From positions 1,798 through 65,797 of the forward strand of contig CAZRLO010000004.1 of NCBI GenBank assembly GCA_964600965.1: a DNA stretch of 64,000 nucleotides, written 5' to 3'. Under the pieces are notes generated by a model. The model was not told where the DNA came from, did not search any database, and saw only the letters and a list, made by a program, of their open reading frames with translations. Origin of the DNA: an uncultured Rhodobacter sp. Lineage in GTDB: Bacteria; Pseudomonadota; Alphaproteobacteria; Rhodobacterales; Rhodobacteraceae. This document shows, piece after piece, positions 5,497 through 55,402 of the stretch (its first letter is position 1; every line of letters starts with the position of its first letter). A program made the position numbers and the translations under genes.

Positions 5497-6120
5497 ATGT
5501 CTCAAGCCAATGAACCCAGCCTGATCCGCATGGCGCGCGCCGACGGCAAAGAGGCCACGATTGCACCCCTGAAACTGGGCCACCGCGTTCGCGAATTGCG
5601 CAAGGCCCGTAACTGGACGCTGGAACAGGCCGCCAAAGAGGCCGGACTTGCACGCTCGACCCTTTCCAAGATCGAAAACGAACAGATGTCGCCGACATTC
5701 GATGCGGTCAAGAAACTGGCCGAGGGGCTGGGCATCTCGATCCCGCAGCTATTCACCCCGCCCAAACAGGAACGCGTGCTGGGGCGGATGGCGATCACCC
5801 GTCCGGGCGAGGGCAAACCCTATCTCACCGCCACATATGAACACGAATTGCTGGCCCCGAACCTGACGCGCAAGGCAATGCTGCCCTATCGGGCCCGCGT
5901 GCGCGCCCGCGATGCCGCCGAATTCAACGGCTGGGTCCGCCACGATGGCGAGGAATTTCTGTATGTCCTGTCCGGCGTGATCACCTTTTACAGCGAGTTT
6001 TATGAACCCGTCGAAATGCGCCGCGGCGACAGCGCCTATTACGACGCCGCGATGGGCCACAACGTGGTTTCCATCAGCCAGGAAGATGCGATCATCCTGT
6101 GGGTCACGTCGCTGCAATGA
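5497..6120 (+). CDS. XRE-family transcriptional regulator with C-terminal cupin domain
   Basis: Has an N-terminal HTH (LGHRVRELRKARNWTLEQAAKEAGLARSTLSKIENEQMSPT) and a C-terminal cupin-like segment (HDGEEFLYVLSG...YYDAAMGHN). Start set at ATG 5497 (MSQANEP). Confidence 0.85.
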   Translation: MSQANEPSLIRMARADGKEATIAPLKLGHRVRELRKARNWTLEQAAKEAGLARSTLSKIENEQMSPTFDAVKKLAEGLGISIPQLFTPPKQERVLGRMAITRPGEGKPYLTATYEHELLAPNLTRKAMLPYRARVRARDAAEFNGWVRHDGEEFLYVLSGVITFYSEFYEPVEMRRGDSAYYDAAMGHNVVSISQEDAIILWVTSLQ

Positions 6121-6212
6121 TCCCGTTGCTGGCGACCGCAGACCAAAACCCGAATTCCGGCGCTTTTTGAGGGCGTTACCGCGCGGCGTTCATTTTCCGG
6201 GATTCGACAAAA

Positions 6213-6242
6213 AAACGCCCGCACGAAGCGGGCGTTAAGTTA
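6213..6242 (+). terminator. hairpin downstream of the XRE-cupin gene (possible intrinsic terminator)
   Basis: AACGCCCGC-acgaa-GCGGGCGTT forms a 9-bp GC-rich stem. An A-run precedes it and AAGTTATT follows. The T-tract is weak, so efficiency is uncertain. Confidence 0.45.
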
Positions 6243-6396
6243 TTGAGGCAGGTTTCATACAGGCAAGAAACCTATCGAGCAGTGCAGTTGTTATACGAAA
6301 TCTGTACGGGTGCGCCAAGTTAAAATTTGAAAATTTTGTGGCAAGTCAGTAGGCTGGACCACGACCTGCCCCCATCATGACGGAAATGTTGCGCCG

Positions 6397-35271: not shown

Positions 35272-38154
35272 TCATTCCGCCGCGACCGGCTTGGCCGCCA
35301 ATATTGCCTTGAGATAACGGCCGGTATGGCTGTTTTTGCTCAGCGACACATCTTCGGGTGTGCCCGTCGCCACGATCCGTCCGCCGCCATCGCCGCCCTC
35401 GGGGCCGATATCGATGATGTGGTCGGCGGTTTTGATCACGTCCAGATTATGTTCGATCACCAACACGGTGTTGCCCTGCGCCACCAGTTCGTGCAGCACC
35501 TCCATCAGTTTGCGAACATCCTCGAAATGCAGCCCCGTCGTCGGTTCATCGAGGATGTAGAGCGTGCGCCCGGTCGAGCGTTTGGAGAGTTCCTTGCTCA
35601 GCTTCACCCGCTGCGCCTCGCCGCCTGACAGCGTCGTCGCCTGCTGGCCGACCTTGATATAGCCCAGACCAACACGGCAAAGCGCCGTCATCTTTTCGCG
35701 AATGGACGGCACGGCCTTGAAGAATTGTTCGGCGTCTTCGACATTCATGTCCAGTATGTCGGCGATGCTTTTGCCCTTGAAGCGGATCTCCAGCGTCTCA
35801 CGGTTGTAACGTTTGCCCCGGCAACTTTCGCAGGTGACATAGACATCGGGCAGAAAGTGCATCTCGATCTTGATCAGCCCGTCGCCCTGACAGGCCTCGC
35901 ACCGCCCGCCCTTGACGTTGAACGAAAACCGACCGGGCTTGTAGCCGCGGGTTTTCGCCTCGGGCAGGCCCGCGAACCAATCGCGGATCGGCGTGAAAGC
36001 CCCGGTATAGGTGGCAGGATTTGATCGCGGGGTGCGGCCGATGGGGCGCTGGTCGATGTCGATCACCTTGTCGAGGTATTCCAGACCGGTGACGGAATCG
36101 CACGGTGCCGGGGTCTGCCGCGCCCCGTTCAGGCGCAGACTTGCGGTCTTGAACAGGGTTTCCACCGTCAGCGTGGATTTGCCACCGCCCGAAACGCCGG
36201 TGATGCAGGTAAAGGTGCCCAGTGGAAATTCAGCGGTCATGTTCTTGAGGTTGTTGCCCGTGGCGCCCCGCACCGTCAGAACCTTGCCATTGCCCTTGCG
36301 CCGCTCGCCCGGGATCGGGACCGCGCGGCGTCCGGTCAGGTATTGCCCGGTGATCGAGTCCCGGCTGGCGGCGATGTCGTCCGGCGTTCCGCAGGCAATG
36401 ATCCGCCCGCCATGCACGCCCGCACCGGGGCCGATATCCAGCACATGATCGGCGCAGCGGATCGCCTCTTCGTCGTGTTCGACCACGATCACGGTGTTGC
36501 CCTGATCGCGTAGGTTCTTCAATGTTTCCAACAACCTGCCATTGTCGCGCTGATGCAGCCCGATCGACGGTTCGTCCAGCACATAAAGCACGCCGGTCAG
36601 ACCCGAACCGATCTGGCTGGCCAGCCGTATCCGCTGGCTTTCGCCACCGCTCAGCGTGCCGGAATTGCGGCCCAGCGTCAGATAGTCCAGCCCGACATTG
36701 ACCAGGAATCCAAGGCGCTCCCGGATTTCCTTGAGGATCGCCTGGGCGATTTCGTTTTTCTGGGCCGACAGGCTGGCGGGTACGGAATCCACCCAGTCCA
36801 GCGCCTCGCGGATCGACATTTGCACCACCTGCCCCGCATGCAGCAAGTTTGCGCCGCCATCCCCGGCGGGGCCGATCCTGACCGCCAGCGCCTCGGCTCG
36901 CAGGCGGAAGCCGCCGCAGGCGCCACATTCGCGGTTGTTCTGGTAACGCTCGAATTCTTCGCGGATCCAGTTGCTGTCGGTCTCGCGATACCGGCGTTCC
37001 ATGTTGGGGATGACGCCCTCGAACGCGCGGGTCACCTCGTATACGCGCCCACCTTCGTCGTAACGAAAGCGGATTTCCTCGTCCCCGGAACCATAAAGCA
37101 TGACCTGCTGTGCAAAATCGGGCAAATCGCGCCAAGCCGCATCGCGTTCAAATCCGTAATGGCGCGCCAGCGCCTCGATGGTTTGCAGGAAGTAGGGCGA
37201 TTTCCCCTTGCGCCACGGGGCCAGCGCCCCGTCATAAAGCGCGATCGTCGGGTCGGGCACGACAAGGCGTTCGTCGAAAAACAGCTCCACCCCCAGCCCG
37301 TCGCAATCCGGGCAGGCGCCAAAGGGCGCGTTGAACGAAAAAAGCCGCGGTTCGATCTCCGGAATGGTGAAGCCGCTGACCGGGCAGGCGAATTTTTCGG
37401 AAAACGTGATCCGCTCGGGCGTGCCGTCGCCGGGCATCGTTTCCAGAATGGCGATACCGTCGGCCAGATTGAGCGCGGTGCGCAGACTGTCCGCCAACCG
37501 GGTCTCCAGCCCGTCGCGAACCGCGATCCGATCCACGACCACGTCGATGTCATGGCGCAGCTTCCGGTCGAGTTTGGGCGCGTCCTCCAGCTCGTAAAAG
37601 GCGCCGTCCACCTTGACGCGCTGGAAACCCTGTTTCTGCAAGTCCATGAATTCCTTGCGGTATTCCCCCTTGCGATCCCGAACGATCGGGGCAAGCAGAT
37701 AGGCGCGCGTGTCGGTCGGCATCGCCATGATCCGATCGACCATTTCGCTGACCTGCTGGGCCTGGATCGGCAGGCCGGTCGCAGGGCTGTAAGGGGTGCC
37801 GGCACGGGCGAACAGCAGCCGCAGATAGTCGTAAATCTCGGTCACGGTGCCGACGGTGGACCGGGGGTTCTTGCTGGTGGTCCGCTGTTCGATGGAAATC
37901 GCCGGCGAAAGGCCGCTGATATGATCGAGGTCGGGCTTTTGCATCATGTCAAGGAATTGCCGCGCATACGCGCTGAGACTTTCGACATAGCGCCGCTGGC
38001 CTTCGGCATAGATGGTGTCAAATGCCAGACTGGACTTGCCGGAGCCCGAAAGCCCGGTGATGACGACCAGACGATCCCGCGGAATATCGACGTCGATCGA
38101 TTTCAGGTTATGCTCGCGCGCGCCCCGGATTTCGATCTGTTTCAGTTCGGTCAT
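35272..38154 (-). CDS. uvrA: excinuclease ABC subunit A
   Basis: 960 aa. It begins [55 protein letters not shown] and has two ABC ATPase modules and zinc-finger cysteines. Confidence 0.97.
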
Positions 38155-38208: not shown

Positions 38209-38223
38209 GAACAAAACGTGATC
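38209..38223 (-). promoter_or_regulatory. imperfect alpha-type LexA box upstream of uvrA
   Basis: The plus strand reads GAAC-aaaacgt-GATC. One mismatch to GAAC-N7-GAAC. It lies 55-69 nt upstream of the uvrA ATG. Confidence 0.3.
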
Positions 38224-39265: not shown

Positions 39266-39712
39266 ATGGCAGGATCGGTCAACAAAGTCATCATCGTCGG
39301 CAATCTGGGCCGCGACCCCGAGGTGCGGACGTTCCAGAATGGCGGCAAGGTCTGCAATCTGCGCATCGCCACGTCGGAAAAGTGGCGCGACAAGAATTCG
39401 GGGGAAAACCGCGAAAAGACCGAGTGGCATTCGGTTGCGATCTTTCAGGAAGGGCTGGTGCGCGTTGCCGAACAGTATCTGAAGAAGGGCTCGACGGTCT
39501 ATATCGAGGGCAAGCTTCAGACCCGCAAATGGCAGGATCAGTCGGGCAACGACCGCTACTCGACCGAGGTGGTCTTGCAGGGATTCGACGGCAAGATGGT
39601 GATGCTGGGCGGGCGCGGCGGTGGCGGCGAACAGGGCGGCTACGACGGCGGATCATCGGGTGGCTTCGAACCGGGGCCCTCGGCTGATATGGACGACGAA
39701 ATTCCGTTCTGA
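39266..39712 (+). CDS. ssb: single-stranded DNA-binding protein
   Basis: [21 protein letters not shown]...TEWH..., a Gly-rich linker and the acidic tail [11 protein letters not shown] 39266 is preceded by GGAGG. Confidence 0.95.
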
Positions 39713-47432: not shown

Positions 47433-47792
47433 CACCGGTTGGCTGATTTCCACTTCAATACCATCACGTACAGCGTTGTAAAAACACGATTTTCGATTGG
47501 TGTGGCAGGCCGGACCGGTCTGGCGGACCTGTAACAGCAGGCAATCGCGGTCGCAGTCGAACCGCAATTCGACCAATTCCTGCACATGTCCGCTGGTCGC
47601 GCCTTTTTCCCAGAATGCACCGCGCGAGCGCGACCAATAGGTGACGCGACGGGTCCGCAGACTGCGGGCAATGGATTGCGCGTTCATCCACGCCAGCATC
47701 AGGACCTCGCCCGAGACGCAATCCTGAGCGATGGCCGGGATCAGGCCGCGATCGTCAAATCTCAGGGTTTCCGGGTCAAATTCCATCGCCAT
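47427..47792 (-). CDS. hisI: phosphoribosyl-AMP cyclohydrolase
   Basis: Conserved strings are GLIPAIAQD...MLAWMN, YWSRSR...W.KG.TSGH and DCD.D.LL..V.Q.G.ACHT....CF. Confidence 0.92.
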   Translation of the reverse strand: MAMEFDPETLRFDDRGLIPAIAQDCVSGEVLMLAWMNAQSIARSLRTRRVTYWSRSRGAFWEKGATSGHVQELVELRFDCDRDCLLLQVRQTGPACHTNRKSCFYNAVRDGIEVEISQPVS

Positions 47793-47868
47793 GTCAGCAT
47801 GTCCTTTTCAAGCGCCCTCGCATCCCTTATCTAAAGCGCAACCAGACACAAGAAAAGGCGCGGTTGCC

Positions 47869-48321
47869 ATGCGCGGCGAAAGCGATCTCATCAAATTGTA
47901 TTCCGGCCGCATTCTGGCACTGGCCGCCGCGATTCCGCATACCGAACGGCTGGCAGGGCCGGTTGCAACCGCGCATCGGCGCTCGCCGGTTTGCGGGTCC
48001 GCCGTCACGGTGGATCTGGTGATCTGCGACGGGCGGATCGAGTCGTTTGGCCAGGACGTCAAGGCCTGTGCCCTCGGTCAGGCCGCCGCGTCGGTTCTGG
48101 GGGCGCATGTGATCGGGCGCAGCCTTGCCGAAATCACGGTCGCACGCGACCAGCTTGCCGCCATGCTGAAATCGGACGGTCCCGCGCCGGATGCGCCCTT
48201 TGAAGAGCTTGAAGTCCTGATGCCCGCCCGCGCCTATCCCAACCGCCACGCGTCGATCCTGCTGGCGATGGAGGCGACCATCGCCGCCCTGAACGTCGCG
48301 CCGAACACCGCCTGCGCCTAA
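47869..48321 (+). CDS. NifU/IscU-like iron-sulfur cluster scaffold-family protein
   Basis: 150 aa. LYSGRIL..A...PH...L and the spaced cysteines ...SPVCGS...C.LGQA... resemble the NifU N-terminal domain. The assignment is at family level only. Confidence 0.65.
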   Translation: MRGESDLIKLYSGRILALAAAIPHTERLAGPVATAHRRSPVCGSAVTVDLVICDGRIESFGQDVKACALGQAAASVLGAHVIGRSLAEITVARDQLAAMLKSDGPAPDAPFEELEVLMPARAYPNRHASILLAMEATIAALNVAPNTACA

Positions 48322-48355
48322 AAAAACGCCGCAGCTTCCAAATGGAAGTGCGGCG
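48320..48355 (-). terminator. strong rho-independent terminator on the minus strand (hairpin is also usable by the plus-strand NifU-like gene)
   Basis: The minus strand reads CGCCGCACTTCC-attt-GGAAGCTGCGGCG followed by TTTTTTT. The stem is ~12 bp with one bulged G. The T7 run overlaps the TAA stop of the plus-strand gene. Confidence 0.75.
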
Positions 48356-48493
48356 CCAAAGGTGCGGACCGTGGGTTTCCCGTTTGTGATCACAAAAGAT
48401 CAAACGCCCGGATCAGGCGAAATCGGGGCGTTGGCGCGCGCGATCAAGGGAAGAGACGCGCCGCCATCTTGCGGGAACGGACCGTGGGCAGTG

Positions 48494-48610
48494 TCACGCC
48501 ATGCCGGGCAGCGCCAGCCCGACCATCAGCACCACCAAAATGGCGGCCATGCCAATGGAATCTTCCAGAAAAGTACCGCGGGATACGATGCAACGGACCT
48601 GTTCGAGCAT
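48494..48610 (-). CDS. candidate 38-aa hydrophobic peptide in the SOS-box-controlled unit (MLEQVRCIVSRGTFLEDSIGMAAILVVLMVGLALPGMA)
   Basis: This is the first well-biased ORF downstream of the predicted LexA-controlled promoter. Third codon positions are G/C in 28 of 38 cases. The C-terminal ~20 residues are hydrophobic. The SD is weak (AGG 6 nt upstream). An overlapping 42-aa alternative frame (48526-48654) cannot be excluded. Confidence 0.3.
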   Translation of the reverse strand: MLEQVRCIVSRGTFLEDSIGMAAILVVLMVGLALPGMA

Positions 48611-48663
48611 GAGAAACCTGTAGATTGGAACACTGTGTTTCCGGTTTGTTCCATATCTCGGCA

Positions 48664-48707
48664 GAACTTGTAAAGAACTTTTTAAGAACATTTGTGAACT
48701 TTTGCAA
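48664..48707 (-). promoter_or_regulatory. sigma70-like promoter overlapped by tandem alpha-type LexA (SOS) boxes
   Basis: On the minus strand: TTGCAA (48707-48702), 17 nt, TAAAAA (48684-48679). GTTC tetramers sit at 48699-96, 48689-86, 48678-75 and 48667-64, with spacers of 6, 7 and 7 nt. That makes two perfect head-to-tail GTTC-N7-GTTC units covering the -10 element and the predicted start site. Confidence 0.65.
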
Positions 48708-48728
48708 TTAACAGTTGAAGAACGTCGT

Positions 48729-50819
48729 TCAACCCACTGAAATCATTTGGATAGACTTTTCCTGCTCCATCAAGTGCAGCAAGACCTGCGCCGCTTGCCC
48801 GCGCGCCGATGTCAGGTCCGGGTCGGTTGCCAGCAGCAGGCGTGCGTCATCCTGCGCCAGTTTCATCAGATCGGCCTGAATCTCCAGATCGGCAATCCGG
48901 AATTTTGGCAGCCCCGATTGCGCCACCCCCAGCACATCCCCGGCACCGCGCAGCTTCAGGTCCTGTTCCGCCAGATAAAAACCGTCGTCGCTGTCGCGCA
49001 ACGCCATCAACCGCTGATGGGCGGCATTGCCCAAGGGCGGAGAATAGATCAGCAGACACGACGATTGCGCCGCCCCCCGCCCGACGCGGCCCCGCAACTG
49101 ATGCAATTGCGCCAGACCAAAATTTTCGGCCTGCTCGATCACCATGATCGACGCCGCGGGCACGTCGACGCCGACCTCGATCACGGTGGTTGCGACCAGA
49201 ACGCGAACTTGCCCGGCAATGAATGCCGCCATGGCCGCGTCCTTTTCGGCCGTTTGCATCTGCCCATGAACCAGACCGACGTTTTCCTCGCCCAGGGCAT
49301 GGCGCAGCGCCTGATACCGATCGGCGGCGGCGGTCCATTCGACCAGCTCGCTCTCCTGAACCAGGGGACACACCCAATAGACCTGCCGGTCCTCGGCCAG
49401 CGCCGATTTCAGGTGCGCCACGACTTCATCGATGCGCCCGGCCGGCATCACGACCGTGCGCACCGGTTTTCTGCCGGGCGGTTTTTCGTCAAGCACCGAG
49501 ACATCCATGTCGCCATATTGTGCCAACGCCAGCGAACGCGGAATCGGGGTTGCGGTCATGACCAGAACATCGACCCCCGCGCCCTTGGCCCCCAGATCCA
49601 TGCGCTGGCGCACCCCGAAACGGTGCTGTTCGTCGATCACGGCAAGGCGCAAATCATTGAATTTGATGTCTTTTTGAAAAACCGCGTGGGTGCCCAGCAG
49701 AACATCGGTTGCCCCGTTGGCCAGACGTTGCAGCTTGGCGACCCGGCTTTTGCCGGTGTCGCGTCCCGTCAGGATCTCCAGCGTCAGGCCGGCGATCTCT
49801 GCAAGCGGCAGCAGCGTTTCCAGATGCTGGCGCGCCAAGATCTCGGTCGGGGCCATCATGACGCCCTGCCCGCCCGCCTCGACCGCGATCAGCAGCGCCA
49901 GCCACGCGACCAGCGTCTTGCCCGAGCCGACATCGCCCTGAAGCAATCGGTTCATCCGATGTTTGCCACCCATGTCCGCCGCAATTTCCGCGATGGCGCG
50001 ACTCTGCGCCTTGGTCGCCTTGAACGGCAACGATTTCAACACCTTGTCTTGCAACTTGCCGGTGGATTGGTTGGCCCGCCCCGGCGCGCGCCGTTGCCGC
50101 GACCGGGCCAACGCCAGCGTTAACTGGTGCGCAAACAATTCATCATACGCCAGACGCTCACGCGGCGGGGCGGCGGGCAACAGATCGCCCGACGATTGCG
50201 GTGCGTGGGCCGTTTGCAGGGCGGCGCGCCATCCGGGCCATTGGCACCGCGACCGGATACCGGGTTCGATCCATTCGGCCAGATCGGGCAATCGTTCGAG
50301 AGCCGAGGCCAGCGCCCGCTGTAACCCCTTTTGCGTCAGCCCGGCGCACAGCGGATAGACGGGTTCATAGACCGGAATGGCGCCCGCCTCGTCGGCGCGT
50401 AGAATATGGTCGGGATGCACCATCTGCGCGACCCCGTCGAACAGTTCCACCTTGCCCGAAACGATGCGCCGCTGGCCGGCGGGCAGATTGCGCCGCAGCC
50501 ATTCGGCGCGGGCGTGAAAAAACACCAGTTGAAAACTGGTCGCCGCATCCCGCACGGTCACGCGATACGGGCGGCCCTTGACGGCGTTCGGATGGTGCGT
50601 GCCGACTTCGACCTCGACCGTGGTGACCACGGGGGCGGTGACCTCGCGGATCGAGTTTTTCGGGTTCCGGTCGATCCCCGCATAGGGCAGCGTCATCACC
50701 AGATCGCGCGGGCGCGCGATGTCCATGGTCGCGAAATGCCGGGCGTTACGCGCGCCGATCCCGGCAAGGCCGGTCATGTCGGCGAAAAGCCCAAACAGCG
50801 ATTCCGGTCGGGGGCTCAT
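48729..50819 (-). CDS. recG: ATP-dependent DNA helicase RecG
   Basis: 696 aa with an N-terminal wedge domain and SF2 helicase motifs (LLQGDVGSGKT, DEQHRFG, MTATPIPR, QLHQLRGRVGRG). Confidence 0.95.
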   Translation of the reverse strand: MSPRPESLFGLFADMTGLAGIGARNARHFATMDIARPRDLVMTLPYAGIDRNPKNSIREVTAPVVTTVEVEVGTHHPNAVKGRPYRVTVRDAATSFQLVFFHARAEWLRRNLPAGQRRIVSGKVELFDGVAQMVHPDHILRADEAGAIPVYEPVYPLCAGLTQKGLQRALASALERLPDLAEWIEPGIRSRCQWPGWRAALQTAHAPQSSGDLLPAAPPRERLAYDELFAHQLTLALARSRQRRAPGRANQSTGKLQDKVLKSLPFKATKAQSRAIAEIAADMGGKHRMNRLLQGDVGSGKTLVAWLALLIAVEAGGQGVMMAPTEILARQHLETLLPLAEIAGLTLEILTGRDTGKSRVAKLQRLANGATDVLLGTHAVFQKDIKFNDLRLAVIDEQHRFGVRQRMDLGAKGAGVDVLVMTATPIPRSLALAQYGDMDVSVLDEKPPGRKPVRTVVMPAGRIDEVVAHLKSALAEDRQVYWVCPLVQESELVEWTAAADRYQALRHALGEENVGLVHGQMQTAEKDAAMAAFIAGQVRVLVATTVIEVGVDVPAASIMVIEQAENFGLAQLHQLRGRVGRGAAQSSCLLIYSPPLGNAAHQRLMALRDSDDGFYLAEQDLKLRGAGDVLGVAQSGLPKFRIADLEIQADLMKLAQDDARLLLATDPDLTSARGQAAQVLLHLMEQEKSIQMISVG

Positions 50820-50829
50820 GGTTGCGGGG

Positions 50830-53768
<2,939 letters not shown>

Positions 53769-53821
53769 GAAATCTCTCCGATGATGGCGGGTGTTTTCTA
53801 TGCGACTCTGGCGTACAATGG

Positions 53822-53836
53822 TTAATCGTTGGTTAC
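53822..53836. promoter_or_regulatory. CtrA-box-like site upstream of ctrA
   Basis: TTAA-tcgttgg-TTAC has one mismatch to TTAA-N7-TTAA(C). It lies 54-68 nt upstream of the ctrA ATG. Confidence 0.4.
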
Positions 53837-53863
53837 CCGTGGCCCAATCCATAGCATTTCAAC

Positions 53864-54142
53864 TTAAGGTTGTCTATACTTCTGTACCGCCGTGGCTCGC
53901 AGGGCCGTTTCGCCGTGTTCGCGGGCCCTTGAAATCCAGTCGTCCAGTTCCTCTGCCGTCAGGCCGTACAACGCGCATGCCTCATCCGCCGTCAGCAATC
54001 CGAATTCCACCGCGCGCACGACCGCACCCTTGCGGCTGGCCACCCAGCGGCGTGTGGCGGGCGGCGGCAGGTCGGCGCGGCTCATGGTCGTGCCGTCGTG
54101 CAATGTCACCAACAATGGTCCCCTGCCCTTTTTGATGTACAT
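53864..54142 (-). CDS. sciP: SciP-like small HTH protein (DUF1153), CtrA antagonist family
   Basis: 92 aa. ...MSRADLPPPATRRWVASRKGAVVRAVEFGLLTADEACALYGLTAEELDDW...GETALRATAVQKY closely follows the Caulobacter SciP pattern (LADLPP..T.RWV.RRKA.VV.AV..GLL...EAC..Y.L...E...W). It lies directly upstream of ctrA. Confidence 0.8.
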   Translation of the reverse strand: MYIKKGRGPLLVTLHDGTTMSRADLPPPATRRWVASRKGAVVRAVEFGLLTADEACALYGLTAEELDDWISRAREHGETALRATAVQKYRQP

Positions 54143-54259
54143 TTCCCCGGTCCTTTCGCGCAGCCAGACTGCACCCGGTTCCTTAAAATGCCGATAATGG
54201 CGGGTCTTGCGACTGCGTAAGATTTTCCTATATTGCGCGCGAAGCAAGGGTTTCCTGAA

Positions 54260-55402
54260 ATGAACGTCGCACAAACCGCCATCACGCCGAACTCGCTGGG
54301 ATTTGCCAAATCCCCGGCCGCCACCCGTGTGCTGGTGGCAATGTCGGGTGGCGTGGACAGTTCGGTGGTGGCGGCGATGCTGGCCGATCAGGGGTATGAT
54401 GTCGTCGGGGTGACGCTGCAACTATACGACCACGGCGCGGCGCTGGCGAAAAAAGGCGCGTGCTGCGCGGGGCGTGACATTCAGGATGCGGCGCGCGTGG
54501 CCCAGGAAATGGGGTTCCCGCATTACGTGCTGGATTACGAGAACCGGTTCCGCGAAAGCGTGATCGATGAATTTGCCGATGCCTATCTGGCGGGCGCGAC
54601 GCCGGTGCCCTGTATCCGCTGCAACGAGCGGGTCAAGTTTCGCGACCTGCTGGAAACCGCACGCGATCTGGCGGCCGACTGCATGGCGACCGGGCACTAT
54701 ATCCAGCGCTTTGACGGACCGCACGGGCCCGAATTGCACACCGCCGGCGATCCGGCGCGCGATCAGTCCTATTTCCTGTTTTCCACGACGCAAACCCAGC
54801 TCGACTACCTGCGATTTCCGCTGGGACACCTGACCAGCAAGGCGGAAACCCGGGCGCTGGCGCGCAGATACGGCCTGCCGGTGGCCGACAAGCCCGACAG
54901 CCAGGACATTTGTTTCGTGCCCAACGGCTCTTACGCCGCCGTGATCGAAAAACTGCGCCCCGGTGCTGCGGAACCGGGCGAGATCGTGCATCTGGATGGG
55001 CGGGTTCTGGGCGAACATCCCGGCGTCATCCATTACACGATCGGACAACGGCGCGGTTTGGGCATCGGTGGGGGCGAGCCGCTTTATGTGGTGAAGCTCG
55101 ATGCCGACGCGCGGCGCGTGATCGTGGGCGCAAAGGCCGATCTTGCGACCGGTAACATCGGGGTGGATCAGGTCAACTGGCTGGGCGACGGTGATTTTGC
55201 CGACGCGCGGGAACATCATGTGCGGGTGCGGGTGCGATCCACCCGGCCACCGCGCCCGGCGATACTGCGCCCGCAGGACGATACCCGGGGCGAGGTCGAA
55301 TTGCTGACCCCGGAAGAGGGGGTCGCCCCCGGTCAGGCCTGTGTCTTTTACGGCGCTGACGACACACGGGTATTGGGCGGCGGCTGGATCGCGCGGGCCT
55401 AG
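54260..55402 (+). CDS. mnmA: tRNA 2-thiouridine(34) synthase
   Basis: A PP-loop ([13 protein letters not shown]) with the conserved CCAGRD, PCIRCN and ATGHY strings. Confidence 0.93.

Follow-up and report, generated by a model that had tools for sequence, protein, structure and literature searches.

What is encoded directly behind recG in Rhodobacter and its relatives? The question is raised by a 64,000-nucleotide stretch of DNA from an uncultured Rhodobacter sp. (GenBank assembly GCA_964600965.1, contig CAZRLO010000004.1, positions 1,798 to 65,797), here called the window. The recG gene is on the minus strand of the window, with its stop codon at 48729-48731, and the minus-strand sequence 3′ of that stop, read directly from the window, is TTGCAAAAGTTCACAAATGTTCTTAAAAAGTTCTTTACAAGTTCTGCCGAGATATGGAACAAACCGGAAAC. 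A preliminary description, made from the letters alone, had proposed an SOS-induced unit at this place. It comprised GTTC repeats of the LexA type, one of two small open reading frames (ORFs), a long untranslated region (UTR) and a terminator. The elements it named are all present: GTTC tetramers at 48699-96, 48689-86, 48678-75 and 48667-64, the hexamers TTGCAA (48707-48702) and TAAAAA (48684-48679), and frames of 38 (48610-48494) and 42 (48654-48526) amino acids. Our analysis suggests that the minus strand from 48320 to 48699, beginning just 3′ of recG, is probably a self-contained transcription unit that is repressed by LexA, has two outputs and has been inherited vertically across the Rhodobacteraceae.

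The small gene behind recG

We compared the window with 80 species-level Rhodobacteraceae loci, obtained from a genome scan with RecG (63-73% RecG identity). The GTTC boxes, the 38-aa frame and the terminator are conserved together downstream of recG, so that the comparative check suggested in the preliminary description came out in its favour. Of the 80 loci, 74 have a perfect GTTC-N7-GTTC box on the recG strand within the 700 nt that follow the recG stop codon. Orthologues of the 38-aa frame are found in 75, starting 16-68 nt after the downstream box, and 74 of these 75 have the terminator. The encoded protein is exactly 40 aa long in 57 loci, and 67 of 75 relatives have a Shine-Dalgarno (SD)-like motif ahead of the ATG.

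The preliminary description had left open which of its two frames was coding. For the 38-aa frame, 28 of 38 codons end in G or C. The coding signature was measured in the 57 species with an ORF of exactly 40 codons. Nucleotide diversity at codon positions 1, 2 and 3 is 0.47, 0.30 and 0.63, and the uncorrected ratio of non-synonymous to synonymous change (pN/pS) is 0.58 in the reading frame itself; the other two frames give 0.92 and 1.50. Synonymous sites are near saturation. By these comparative measures the 38-aa frame is a real conserved gene, with its amino acid sequence under purifying selection. The Trp-rich 42-aa frame did not survive the same comparison. It lies in frame +1 to the conserved ORF, where pN/pS is 0.92 and there is no coding signature, and it is interrupted by stops in 57 of 57 species. 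Its ATG is part of a conserved DNA motif, TGAGAACA. The reading frame upstream of the ORF varies among close relatives, being in frame in L004 and L037 and out of frame in the window and L005. We also rejected a 65-aa in-frame extension from the ATG at 48691: its start falls within the operator, it is not kept in relatives, and the form in the database is the 38-aa one.

The family consensus is MxxxIKxVxxRSxxTLLQDAxGAAALVVMLxVGLHLPGLx. Residues M1, D17, G20, L32 and P35 (window numbering) are invariant in 59 sequences, and the invariant motif of the family is T-L-x-x-D-A-x-G ... L-x-x-P. A single-sequence protein search with the window peptide returned only the peptide itself, and a profile made from the translated loci was needed to find the family. 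That profile retrieved 208 clusters at 90% identity, all unnamed or called 'hypothetical protein', and every one with a named source belongs to the Rhodobacterales. An exhaustive hidden Markov model search gave 569 clusters at 50% identity. Members are all stand-alone proteins of ~40 aa, some with an over-called N terminus, and the match always reaches the C terminus. No Pfam or NCBIfam family matches the small protein at its curated threshold.

In the AlphaFold prediction, which has a predicted local distance difference test score (pLDDT) of 83.6, residues 2-10 form a short helix and, after a break, residues 13-37 form a long one that takes in the hydrophobic tail. Residues 19-38 form an uncharged aliphatic stretch. 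The model is consistent with a very small membrane protein having one transmembrane helix, of which the topology is predicted. Because polar, Gly and Pro residues are invariant, and because the gene is single copy with deep synteny at a fixed genomic position, we favour a protein that would act on a specific membrane-protein partner rather than by general membrane damage.

The exact 38-aa product has been called on four metagenome-derived contigs (ENA, JGI, Logan); the NCBI record is also in the protein collection. On the longest of these contigs that was read (25 kb) the gene order is sciP-like (DUF1153), ctrA-like response regulator, ligA, recG and the small ORF. The order ligA-recG-ORF recurs in three of three distant family members taken from the protein search.

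Could the region be nothing but the 3′ UTR and terminator of recG, with a fortuitous ORF? No terminator separates recG from the boxes, and in 74 of 80 species the unit follows recG on its own strand, mostly within ~110 nt of the stop codon. The ORF, conversely, has a fixed length and a coding signature, and the operator and promoter-like elements are kept across relatives. Moreover, the unit can be detached from recG. Tropicimonas marinistellae (L056) has a complete displaced copy 2 kb downstream of recG, and in L055 and L074 the distance is 230-470 nt. We therefore regard an extended recG transcript with a chance frame as a scarcely credible account of the locus.

Predicted operators and promoter

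The tetramers in the window are separated by 6, 7 and 7 nt and form, by exact motif match, two overlapping perfect GTTC-N7-GTTC units (48675-48689 and 48664-48678). The fourth tetramer is limited to the sub-clade of the window (the window, L004 and L037). Three perfect GTTC-N7-GTTC units are seen in the 64 kb against 2.3 expected, which is unremarkable within the window alone, and the case therefore rests on the comparison with other genomes, where the box recurs overwhelmingly more often than chance would allow. After recG, the commonest form of the family box is GTTCTTAAAAAGTTC. The triple arrangement GTTC-N6/7-GTTC-N7-GTTC was counted on both strands of 83 loci, namely the 80 related recG loci and three contigs with the window's own sequence. 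It occurs 73 times, 71 of them directly after recG and one in the displaced unit of L056. The remaining occurrence (L051) is inside the start of a photolyase-like coding sequence and was set aside as a chance match.

In an anchored alignment of 74 species the consensus of the upstream operator is tttGTTC.c.aaTGTTCttAaAAAGTTC, and that of the full regulatory region is tttGTTC.c.aaTGTTCttAaAAAGTTCTTtaCa-N14-TGAGAACAAAg.gGCAACA. The region thus consists of three phased GTTC tetramers, a TTTACA or TTGACA hexamer fused to the third of them, a fixed-length spacer and, after it, the block that is conserved best. This last block is a direct repeat, GAACA-N6-(C/G)AACA, that is, a LexA-type box in the opposite orientation. 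It had escaped the preliminary description; in the window it lies at 48637-48651, inverted and with one mismatch to the LexA motif.

The LexA of Rhodobacter sphaeroides binds a GTTC-N7-GTTC repeat. The same motif has been described as that of LexA in Alphaproteobacteria (PMC9578287; PMC8565304; PMC3323433; Caulobacter ChIP/RNA-seq preprint 10.1101/2025.01.26.634973). Neither recA nor lexA is present in the window or in any fetched locus, and uvrA loci from metagenomes were therefore used as the SOS reference. In 80 such loci there are 40 perfect boxes, in either orientation, in the 20.2 kb upstream of uvrA, compared with three in 152.5 kb of uvrA coding sequence. A LexA matrix was built only from the 40 upstream sites (consensus TGTTCCnnnTTTGTTCT). 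Its three best scores in the whole window are at 48637 on the plus strand (15.5), at the uvrA site, 38223 on the minus strand (14.9), and at 48689 on the minus strand (12.8). Hence both operators of the unit rank in the top three. The uvrA promoters also have boxes of the same orientation and form as the downstream box of the unit, for example GAACAAATCTGGAAC. The proposal that the GTTC repeats are LexA-type operators was well founded, to judge from this independent matrix, and there is strong in silico evidence that the unit belongs to the SOS regulon, with two predicted operators bracketing the core promoter.

At uvrA itself (35272-38154, minus strand) the window has an imperfect box, GATCACGTTTTGTTC, at 38209-38223 on the minus strand, 55 nt before the ATG; close relatives have perfect boxes ~80 nt ahead of the uvrA start. 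The spacer between uvrA and ssb (39278-39577, plus strand) is unusually long, at 1.1 kb.

Direct repeats 10-11 bp apart could also be read by another regulator, such as a response regulator of the OmpR or CtrA type, and the unit would then lie outside the SOS response. The phased repeats and AT-rich spacers are kept beyond what LexA would need (TTAAAAA here, CnnnTTT at uvrA), and CtrA-like phasing is present. Conversely, the independent uvrA-derived matrix picks out both operators, and the DNA upstream of the canonical SOS gene uvrA is strongly enriched in GTTC-N7-GTTC. To our knowledge, no regulator other than LexA uses GTTC-N7-GTTC. Control by a different protein is thus very unlikely in our view, and LexA remains the regulator that we prefer. 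An in silico table of LexA sites in Dinoroseobacter shibae is uninformative here, as it covers only sites upstream of annotated genes (PMC6473078, supplement 3). The expression table for the same organism has, per annotation, no gene in the 400 nt after recG (Dshi_1510; PMC6473078).

The preliminary description had placed the promoter at TTGCAA-17-TAAAAA. This pair is not conserved; the equivalent spacing is 11 nt in most species. The alignment of the 74 species has instead a TTTACA at a conserved position, which varies in the way typical of a -35 element and stands at a near-fixed distance from TG-GAACAA. This better-conserved hexamer (48669-48674) had been overlooked. We infer that the promoter is TTTACA-N17-GAACAA with a preceding TG, overlapped by the second, inverted operator. 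It fits better than TTGCAA/TAAAAA, which we rejected as a conserved promoter and keep as a minor alternative for the clade of the window.

The spacer and -35 region, at 48669-48689 on the minus strand and at the same place in L004-L083, read TTAAAAAGTTCTTTAC. This is TTAA-N7-TTTAC, a CtrA box with one mismatch, of a type accepted in the D. shibae table for the lexA promoter. In 27 of 74 species CtrA-like phasing of this kind overlaps the promoter, and 15 of 74 have a second TTNA-N7-TTAA(C), often GTTAACCAT, in the spacer between -35 and -10. Overlap between the CtrA and LexA regulons has been reported in D. shibae and Rhodobacter capsulatus (PMC6473078). Dual control of the unit by LexA and CtrA is a possibility that these sequences suggest.

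Two further features of the regulatory DNA were seen. In L062 (~6082-6260) and L070 (6082-6203) the upstream boxes are degenerate (e.g. AAGTTGCCAAAAAGTTC) and the downstream GAGAACAAA..GCAACA block is kept. The ORF of L062 differs at its N terminus (MMQSEDREPPLLERLSETLVE...), and this locus has no match to the RNA model described below. The unit may be decaying or diverging in these two loci. In the window, an inverted repeat GGAACA-N14-TGTTCC (48626-48652, minus strand) is made up of the downstream box and an extra GTTC at 48628-48631. It was not seen in relatives, and could be an extra half-site or a 5′ hairpin.

The structured 3′ RNA

The preliminary description took the sequence between ORF and terminator for a long UTR. 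The terminator that it had proposed, a hairpin followed by seven T residues, is borne out by folding (hairpin 48327-48357); a simple terminator scan missed the hairpin owing to a bulge. In 74 of 75 loci a strong terminator is found 90-290 nt past the ORF stop codon, mostly at 120-190 nt. Between the two lie ordered motifs: UUUCUGCCUGCG directly after the stop codon, then CCUGUCCCCA, CUGCCUGUCC and CUGCCUCU. When 67 sequences were each folded alone, a long-range helix was present in the minimum-energy fold of all 67. It pairs GCGGUCUG with CAGAUACGC in typical members, and CGGUCCG..UUCCCG with CGGGAA..CGGUCCG in the window. The helix encloses two to four hairpins with the ordered motifs in their loops, which are C-rich in most relatives.

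Alignment of 40 3′ regions with MAFFT and RNAalifold gave the terminator only, and a covariance model was built from an 11-sequence subset. The model has one match per locus, always just after the ORF, in 69 of 77 sources, and no match elsewhere in 790 kb. The match in the window (48319-48502, minus strand; E=1.4e-6) scores 33.5 bits, compared with 120-170 for typical members. In the 69-sequence alignment 93% of cells are paired, against 34-54% with slid partners. Compensatory changes occur in 24 of 29 pairs, and the observed values were reached by none of 500 shuffles; this alignment was fitted to the covariance model, and its covariation should be read with that caveat. The T-run and the G-U pairs assign the conserved structure to the mRNA strand. 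By these comparisons and predicted folds, the 3′ 'UTR' is an independently folding RNA domain of ~170 nt that is conserved and new.

The lower stem of the terminator is almost fixed. It pairs CCGCCGC with GCGGCGG (alignment A5, columns 419-425 and 447-453), and in the window CGCCGC with GCGGCG. Three of these pairs are the same in every one of the 69 sequences and another three in 65 to 68; the upper stem covaries freely. Sequence conservation over such evolutionary distances is not a property of ordinary terminators. Hence, the near-invariant base may be a binding element for a protein or an RNA.

No Rfam family was found for the 3′ domain when the window and its relatives were searched. The sole model touching the region, RF02883 (BcKCsr2, Burkholderia small RNA 2), matches 48321-48467 on the minus strand over its full length, with 17.1 bits where the gathering threshold is 40 (E = 0.64). 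Searches of 14 relatives at that threshold, and of L007 at E <=10, did not reproduce it. Sub-threshold and unreproduced, it was taken as a chance match. A hok-like fold-back of the 3′ domain onto the translation start was also rejected; the mean pairing probability is 0.06, and exceeds 0.5 in one of 67 loci.

The features of the unit are collected in Table 1.

Table 1. Features of the unit downstream of recG; coordinates are those of the window.
Feature	Position	Strand	Description
Upstream operator	48675-48699	-	Three phased half-sites, GTTC-N6-GTTC-N7-GTTC, including the family-wide box GTTCTTAAAAAGTTC (48675-48689)
Further perfect GTTC-N7-GTTC, GTTCTTTACAAGTTC	48664-48678	-	Overlaps the -35
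-35-like hexamer, TTTACA	48669-48674	-	TTTACA, TTGACA or TTGCCA in relatives; putative function
Presumed TG-extended -10, GAACAA	48646-48651	-	Overlapped by the downstream operator
Downstream operator, inverted LexA-like box, GAACAAACCGGAAAC	48637-48651	-	Family form GAACAAAGnGGCAAC
Predicted transcription start	~48638	-	Within the downstream operator
Short 5′ UTR	48611-48636	-	SD-like CAGG at 48617-48620, 6 nt before the ATG
ORF, 38-aa protein, MLEQVRCIVSRGTFLEDSIGMAAILVVLMVGLALPGMA	48494-48610, stop included	-	Predicted cytoplasmic N-terminal helix and C-terminal transmembrane helix
Conserved structured 3′ RNA domain	48358-48493	-	Closing helix CGGUCCGUUCCCG with CGGGAAAC..ACGGUCCG, around three hairpins
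Intrinsic terminator	48320-48357	-	Hairpin GGCGCCGCACUUCC-AUUU-GGAAGCUGCGGCG (48327-48357), then U7 (48320-48326)

A gene on the plus strand, at 47731-48321, converges on the unit; weak matches to SufU and NifU_N mark it as NifU/SufU-like. Its stop codon, at 48319-48321, falls inside the T-run of the unit's terminator. The two share one hairpin, with a U-run for the minus-strand transcript only. In the three distant family members mentioned above, a NifU/SufU-like gene, hisI and a gluQ-type tRNA-synthetase paralogue lie beyond the unit. On the other side, the window has the sciP-like (DUF1153), ctrA-like, ligA and recG genes ahead of the small-ORF unit (~48729-54700, minus strand), as compared in L001 and L164-L167.

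Possible functions and relation to known systems

How might such a unit work? In undamaged cells LexA dimers on the two operators would shut the promoter, as judged from the sequence. The first operator would be the tandem GTTC half-sites over and upstream of the -35, and the second the inverted GAACA-N6-(G/C)AACA over the -10 and start. DNA damage leads to RecA-stimulated self-cleavage of LexA. This would derepress the unit and give a ~320-nt transcript with two conserved outputs. One would be the ~40-aa protein (38 aa here), in which a short helix in the cytoplasm would precede a single transmembrane helix at the C terminus. The other would be the ~170-nt 3′ RNA, whose closing helix encloses two to four hairpins and whose terminator is almost invariant in its lower stem. 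Purely by inference, the RNA domain could stabilise or process the mRNA, or be released as a 3′-derived regulatory RNA, in which case its C-rich loops would pair with G-rich ribosome-binding sites.

For the protein, the role that seems most likely to us is, as for SidA, the inhibition of a late step of cell division through the FtsW/FtsI/FtsN machinery. The assignment is by analogy and is offered tentatively.

Several observations weigh against the scheme or parts of it. No terminator lies in the 30 nt between recG and the unit in the window, and read-through from recG may contribute to the transcript. The second half-site of the downstream box is consistently CAAC, not GAAC. A consensus scan found no canonical σ70 promoter for either candidate, and the weakness of the proposed -10, GAACAA, makes the start site uncertain. 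No observation made here connects the protein with the division machinery in particular. Finally, the 3′ domain of the window keeps its helices while its loops have drifted, a mild argument against the loops as essential seeds.

The same conservation and structural evidence would suit a protein that is made in the SOS response and modulates not the divisome but another membrane protein, for example a transporter, a protease or a sensor kinase such as CckA. The unit is always in the sciP-ctrA-ligA-recG neighbourhood, CtrA-like phasing covers the promoter in 27 of 74 species, and the CtrA and LexA regulons are reported to overlap in D. shibae and R. capsulatus (PMC6473078). The CtrA-like sites are, conversely, degenerate and confined to a minority of species, and the neighbourhood is perhaps mere old synteny. 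We give this alternative a modest chance.

A further alternative is a type I toxin of the TisB or DinQ kind, made in the SOS response. By depolarising the inner membrane or making it permeable, the peptide would bring about dormancy; the structured parts of the RNA would hold the mRNA back from translation or govern its decay. The small, hydrophobic peptide with one helix, encoded after LexA boxes, fits such a toxin. So does the mRNA, which is highly structured (z = -3.5) with a translation start region that is locally 57% base-paired on average. Type I toxins are usually patchy and multi-copy, whereas the unit is single-copy, strictly syntenic and near-universal in the family, and the invariant polar, Gly and Pro residues point to a specific partner. 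No conserved antisense gene was found; terminator-like matches on the opposite strand are weak (-9 to -18 kcal/mol) and occur in 35 of 67 loci. The 'T-run' of most of these matches is the reverse complement of the AGAACAAA box, and operators, ORF and same-strand RNA domain between them explain every conserved block. The G-U pairs and T-run put the conserved structure on the mRNA strand, and there is no hok-like sequestration of the start by the 3′ domain. A toxin therefore appears unlikely, and by analogy we favour the SidA-like division inhibitor.

Alternatively, the RNA could be the main effector, as an SOS regulatory RNA that would target mRNAs through its C-rich loops and its single-stranded 5′ part. 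The ORF would then be secondary, its translation for example only setting the stability or processing of the RNA. The 3′ domain does fold alone, covaries and has ordered conserved motifs (UUUCUGCCUGCG, CCUGUCCCCA, CUGCCUGUCC, CUGCCUCU). The terminator base is almost invariant, and there is one copy per locus, always at the same site. Purifying selection on the protein, with its invariant residues, is unexpected for by-product translation, and in the clade of the window the loop motifs have drifted while the protein has been kept. An effector RNA with an incidental ORF is thus improbable in our judgement.

An extension of the division-inhibitor reading would give the RNA a part of its own. The unit could be an SOS-controlled dual-function RNA, at once the mRNA for the damage-induced division inhibitor of the Rhodobacteraceae, which would be an analogue of SidA in function, and the source of a released, trans-acting 3′ small RNA. 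Several C-rich seed loops would reprogram translation in the damage response, and the promoter may additionally read the cell cycle via the CtrA-like sites. This is speculative, and we hold it to be one of the less probable outcomes. We know of no SOS-controlled dual-function RNA in Alphaproteobacteria.

We found no description of the unit in the literature searched, including a 2025 review of bacterial small membrane proteins. Together with the lack of a Pfam, NCBIfam or Rfam model, this agrees with the suggestion of the preliminary description that the unit would be new. To judge from its sequence, it is a new family among SOS-induced small membrane proteins. It appears to depart from known ones in its paired operators of opposite orientation and in the structured RNA on the same transcript. 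Alphaproteobacterial division arrest after DNA damage is known only in Caulobacter (SidA and DidA), and SulA is largely gamma-proteobacterial (PMC4211646). The unit is a good candidate for the damage-induced cell-cycle brake of the Rhodobacteraceae. It is near-universal in this family, to which the roseobacters that dominate the coastal ocean belong, as do Rhodobacter and Dinoroseobacter, the genera of laboratory models. Should protein and RNA both be active, the unit would count as a dual-function RNA under SOS control. It also marks an annotation gap, of at least 569 sequence clusters without a Pfam, NCBIfam or Rfam model.

The architecture had been likened to that of TisB, DinQ and SidA. 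The LexA boxes, small ORF and terminator uphold this likeness; the 'long UTR' is a folded RNA, which the preliminary description had not recognised, so the unit is no plain copy of TisB or DinQ. With TisB/IstR-1 and DinQ/AgrB of E. coli it shares LexA control (predicted here), a hydrophobic peptide of <50 aa and a structured mRNA (PMC12648545). Unlike those systems, it has no antisense or divergent antitoxin RNA that we could find, opposite-strand terminator-like matches being weak only. The additional RNA structure is on the 3′ side of its ORF instead of the 5′ side and shows no conserved pairing with the translation start. Furthermore, it is single-copy and syntenic across the family, with strictly conserved polar residues.

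Dual-function and 3′-UTR-derived RNAs (SgrS/SgrT, RNAIII/hld and SR1/SR1P; SorX in Rhodobacter) likewise combine a small ORF and a structured RNA in one transcript (for a review, see PMC12310071). Exposed conserved loops and a Rho-independent terminator, predicted here from sequence and folding, are also shared. The 3′ domain of the present unit differs in being without an Rfam family.

The closest parallel by description is SidA of Caulobacter, a 29-aa, SOS-induced inner-membrane protein that inhibits division and binds FtsW and FtsN (PMC4211646). Both systems are alphaproteobacterial, with a GTTC-N7-GTTC LexA box in the promoter (PMC9578287). Both have very small single-pass membrane proteins (predicted here) encoded by stand-alone short transcription units. 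By analogy, both would fill the role of the gamma-proteobacterial SulA, the gene for which is largely absent outside that group (PMC4211646). The likeness is one of description; the two proteins are not known to be related in sequence, and neither has a Pfam model. Three differences stand out. The protein described here has 40 aa, compared with 29, and a conserved cytoplasmic helix. Its promoter has two operators, whereas ~97% of Caulobacter SOS promoters have a single box. Lastly, the unit carries a conserved structured 3′ RNA of ~170 nt.

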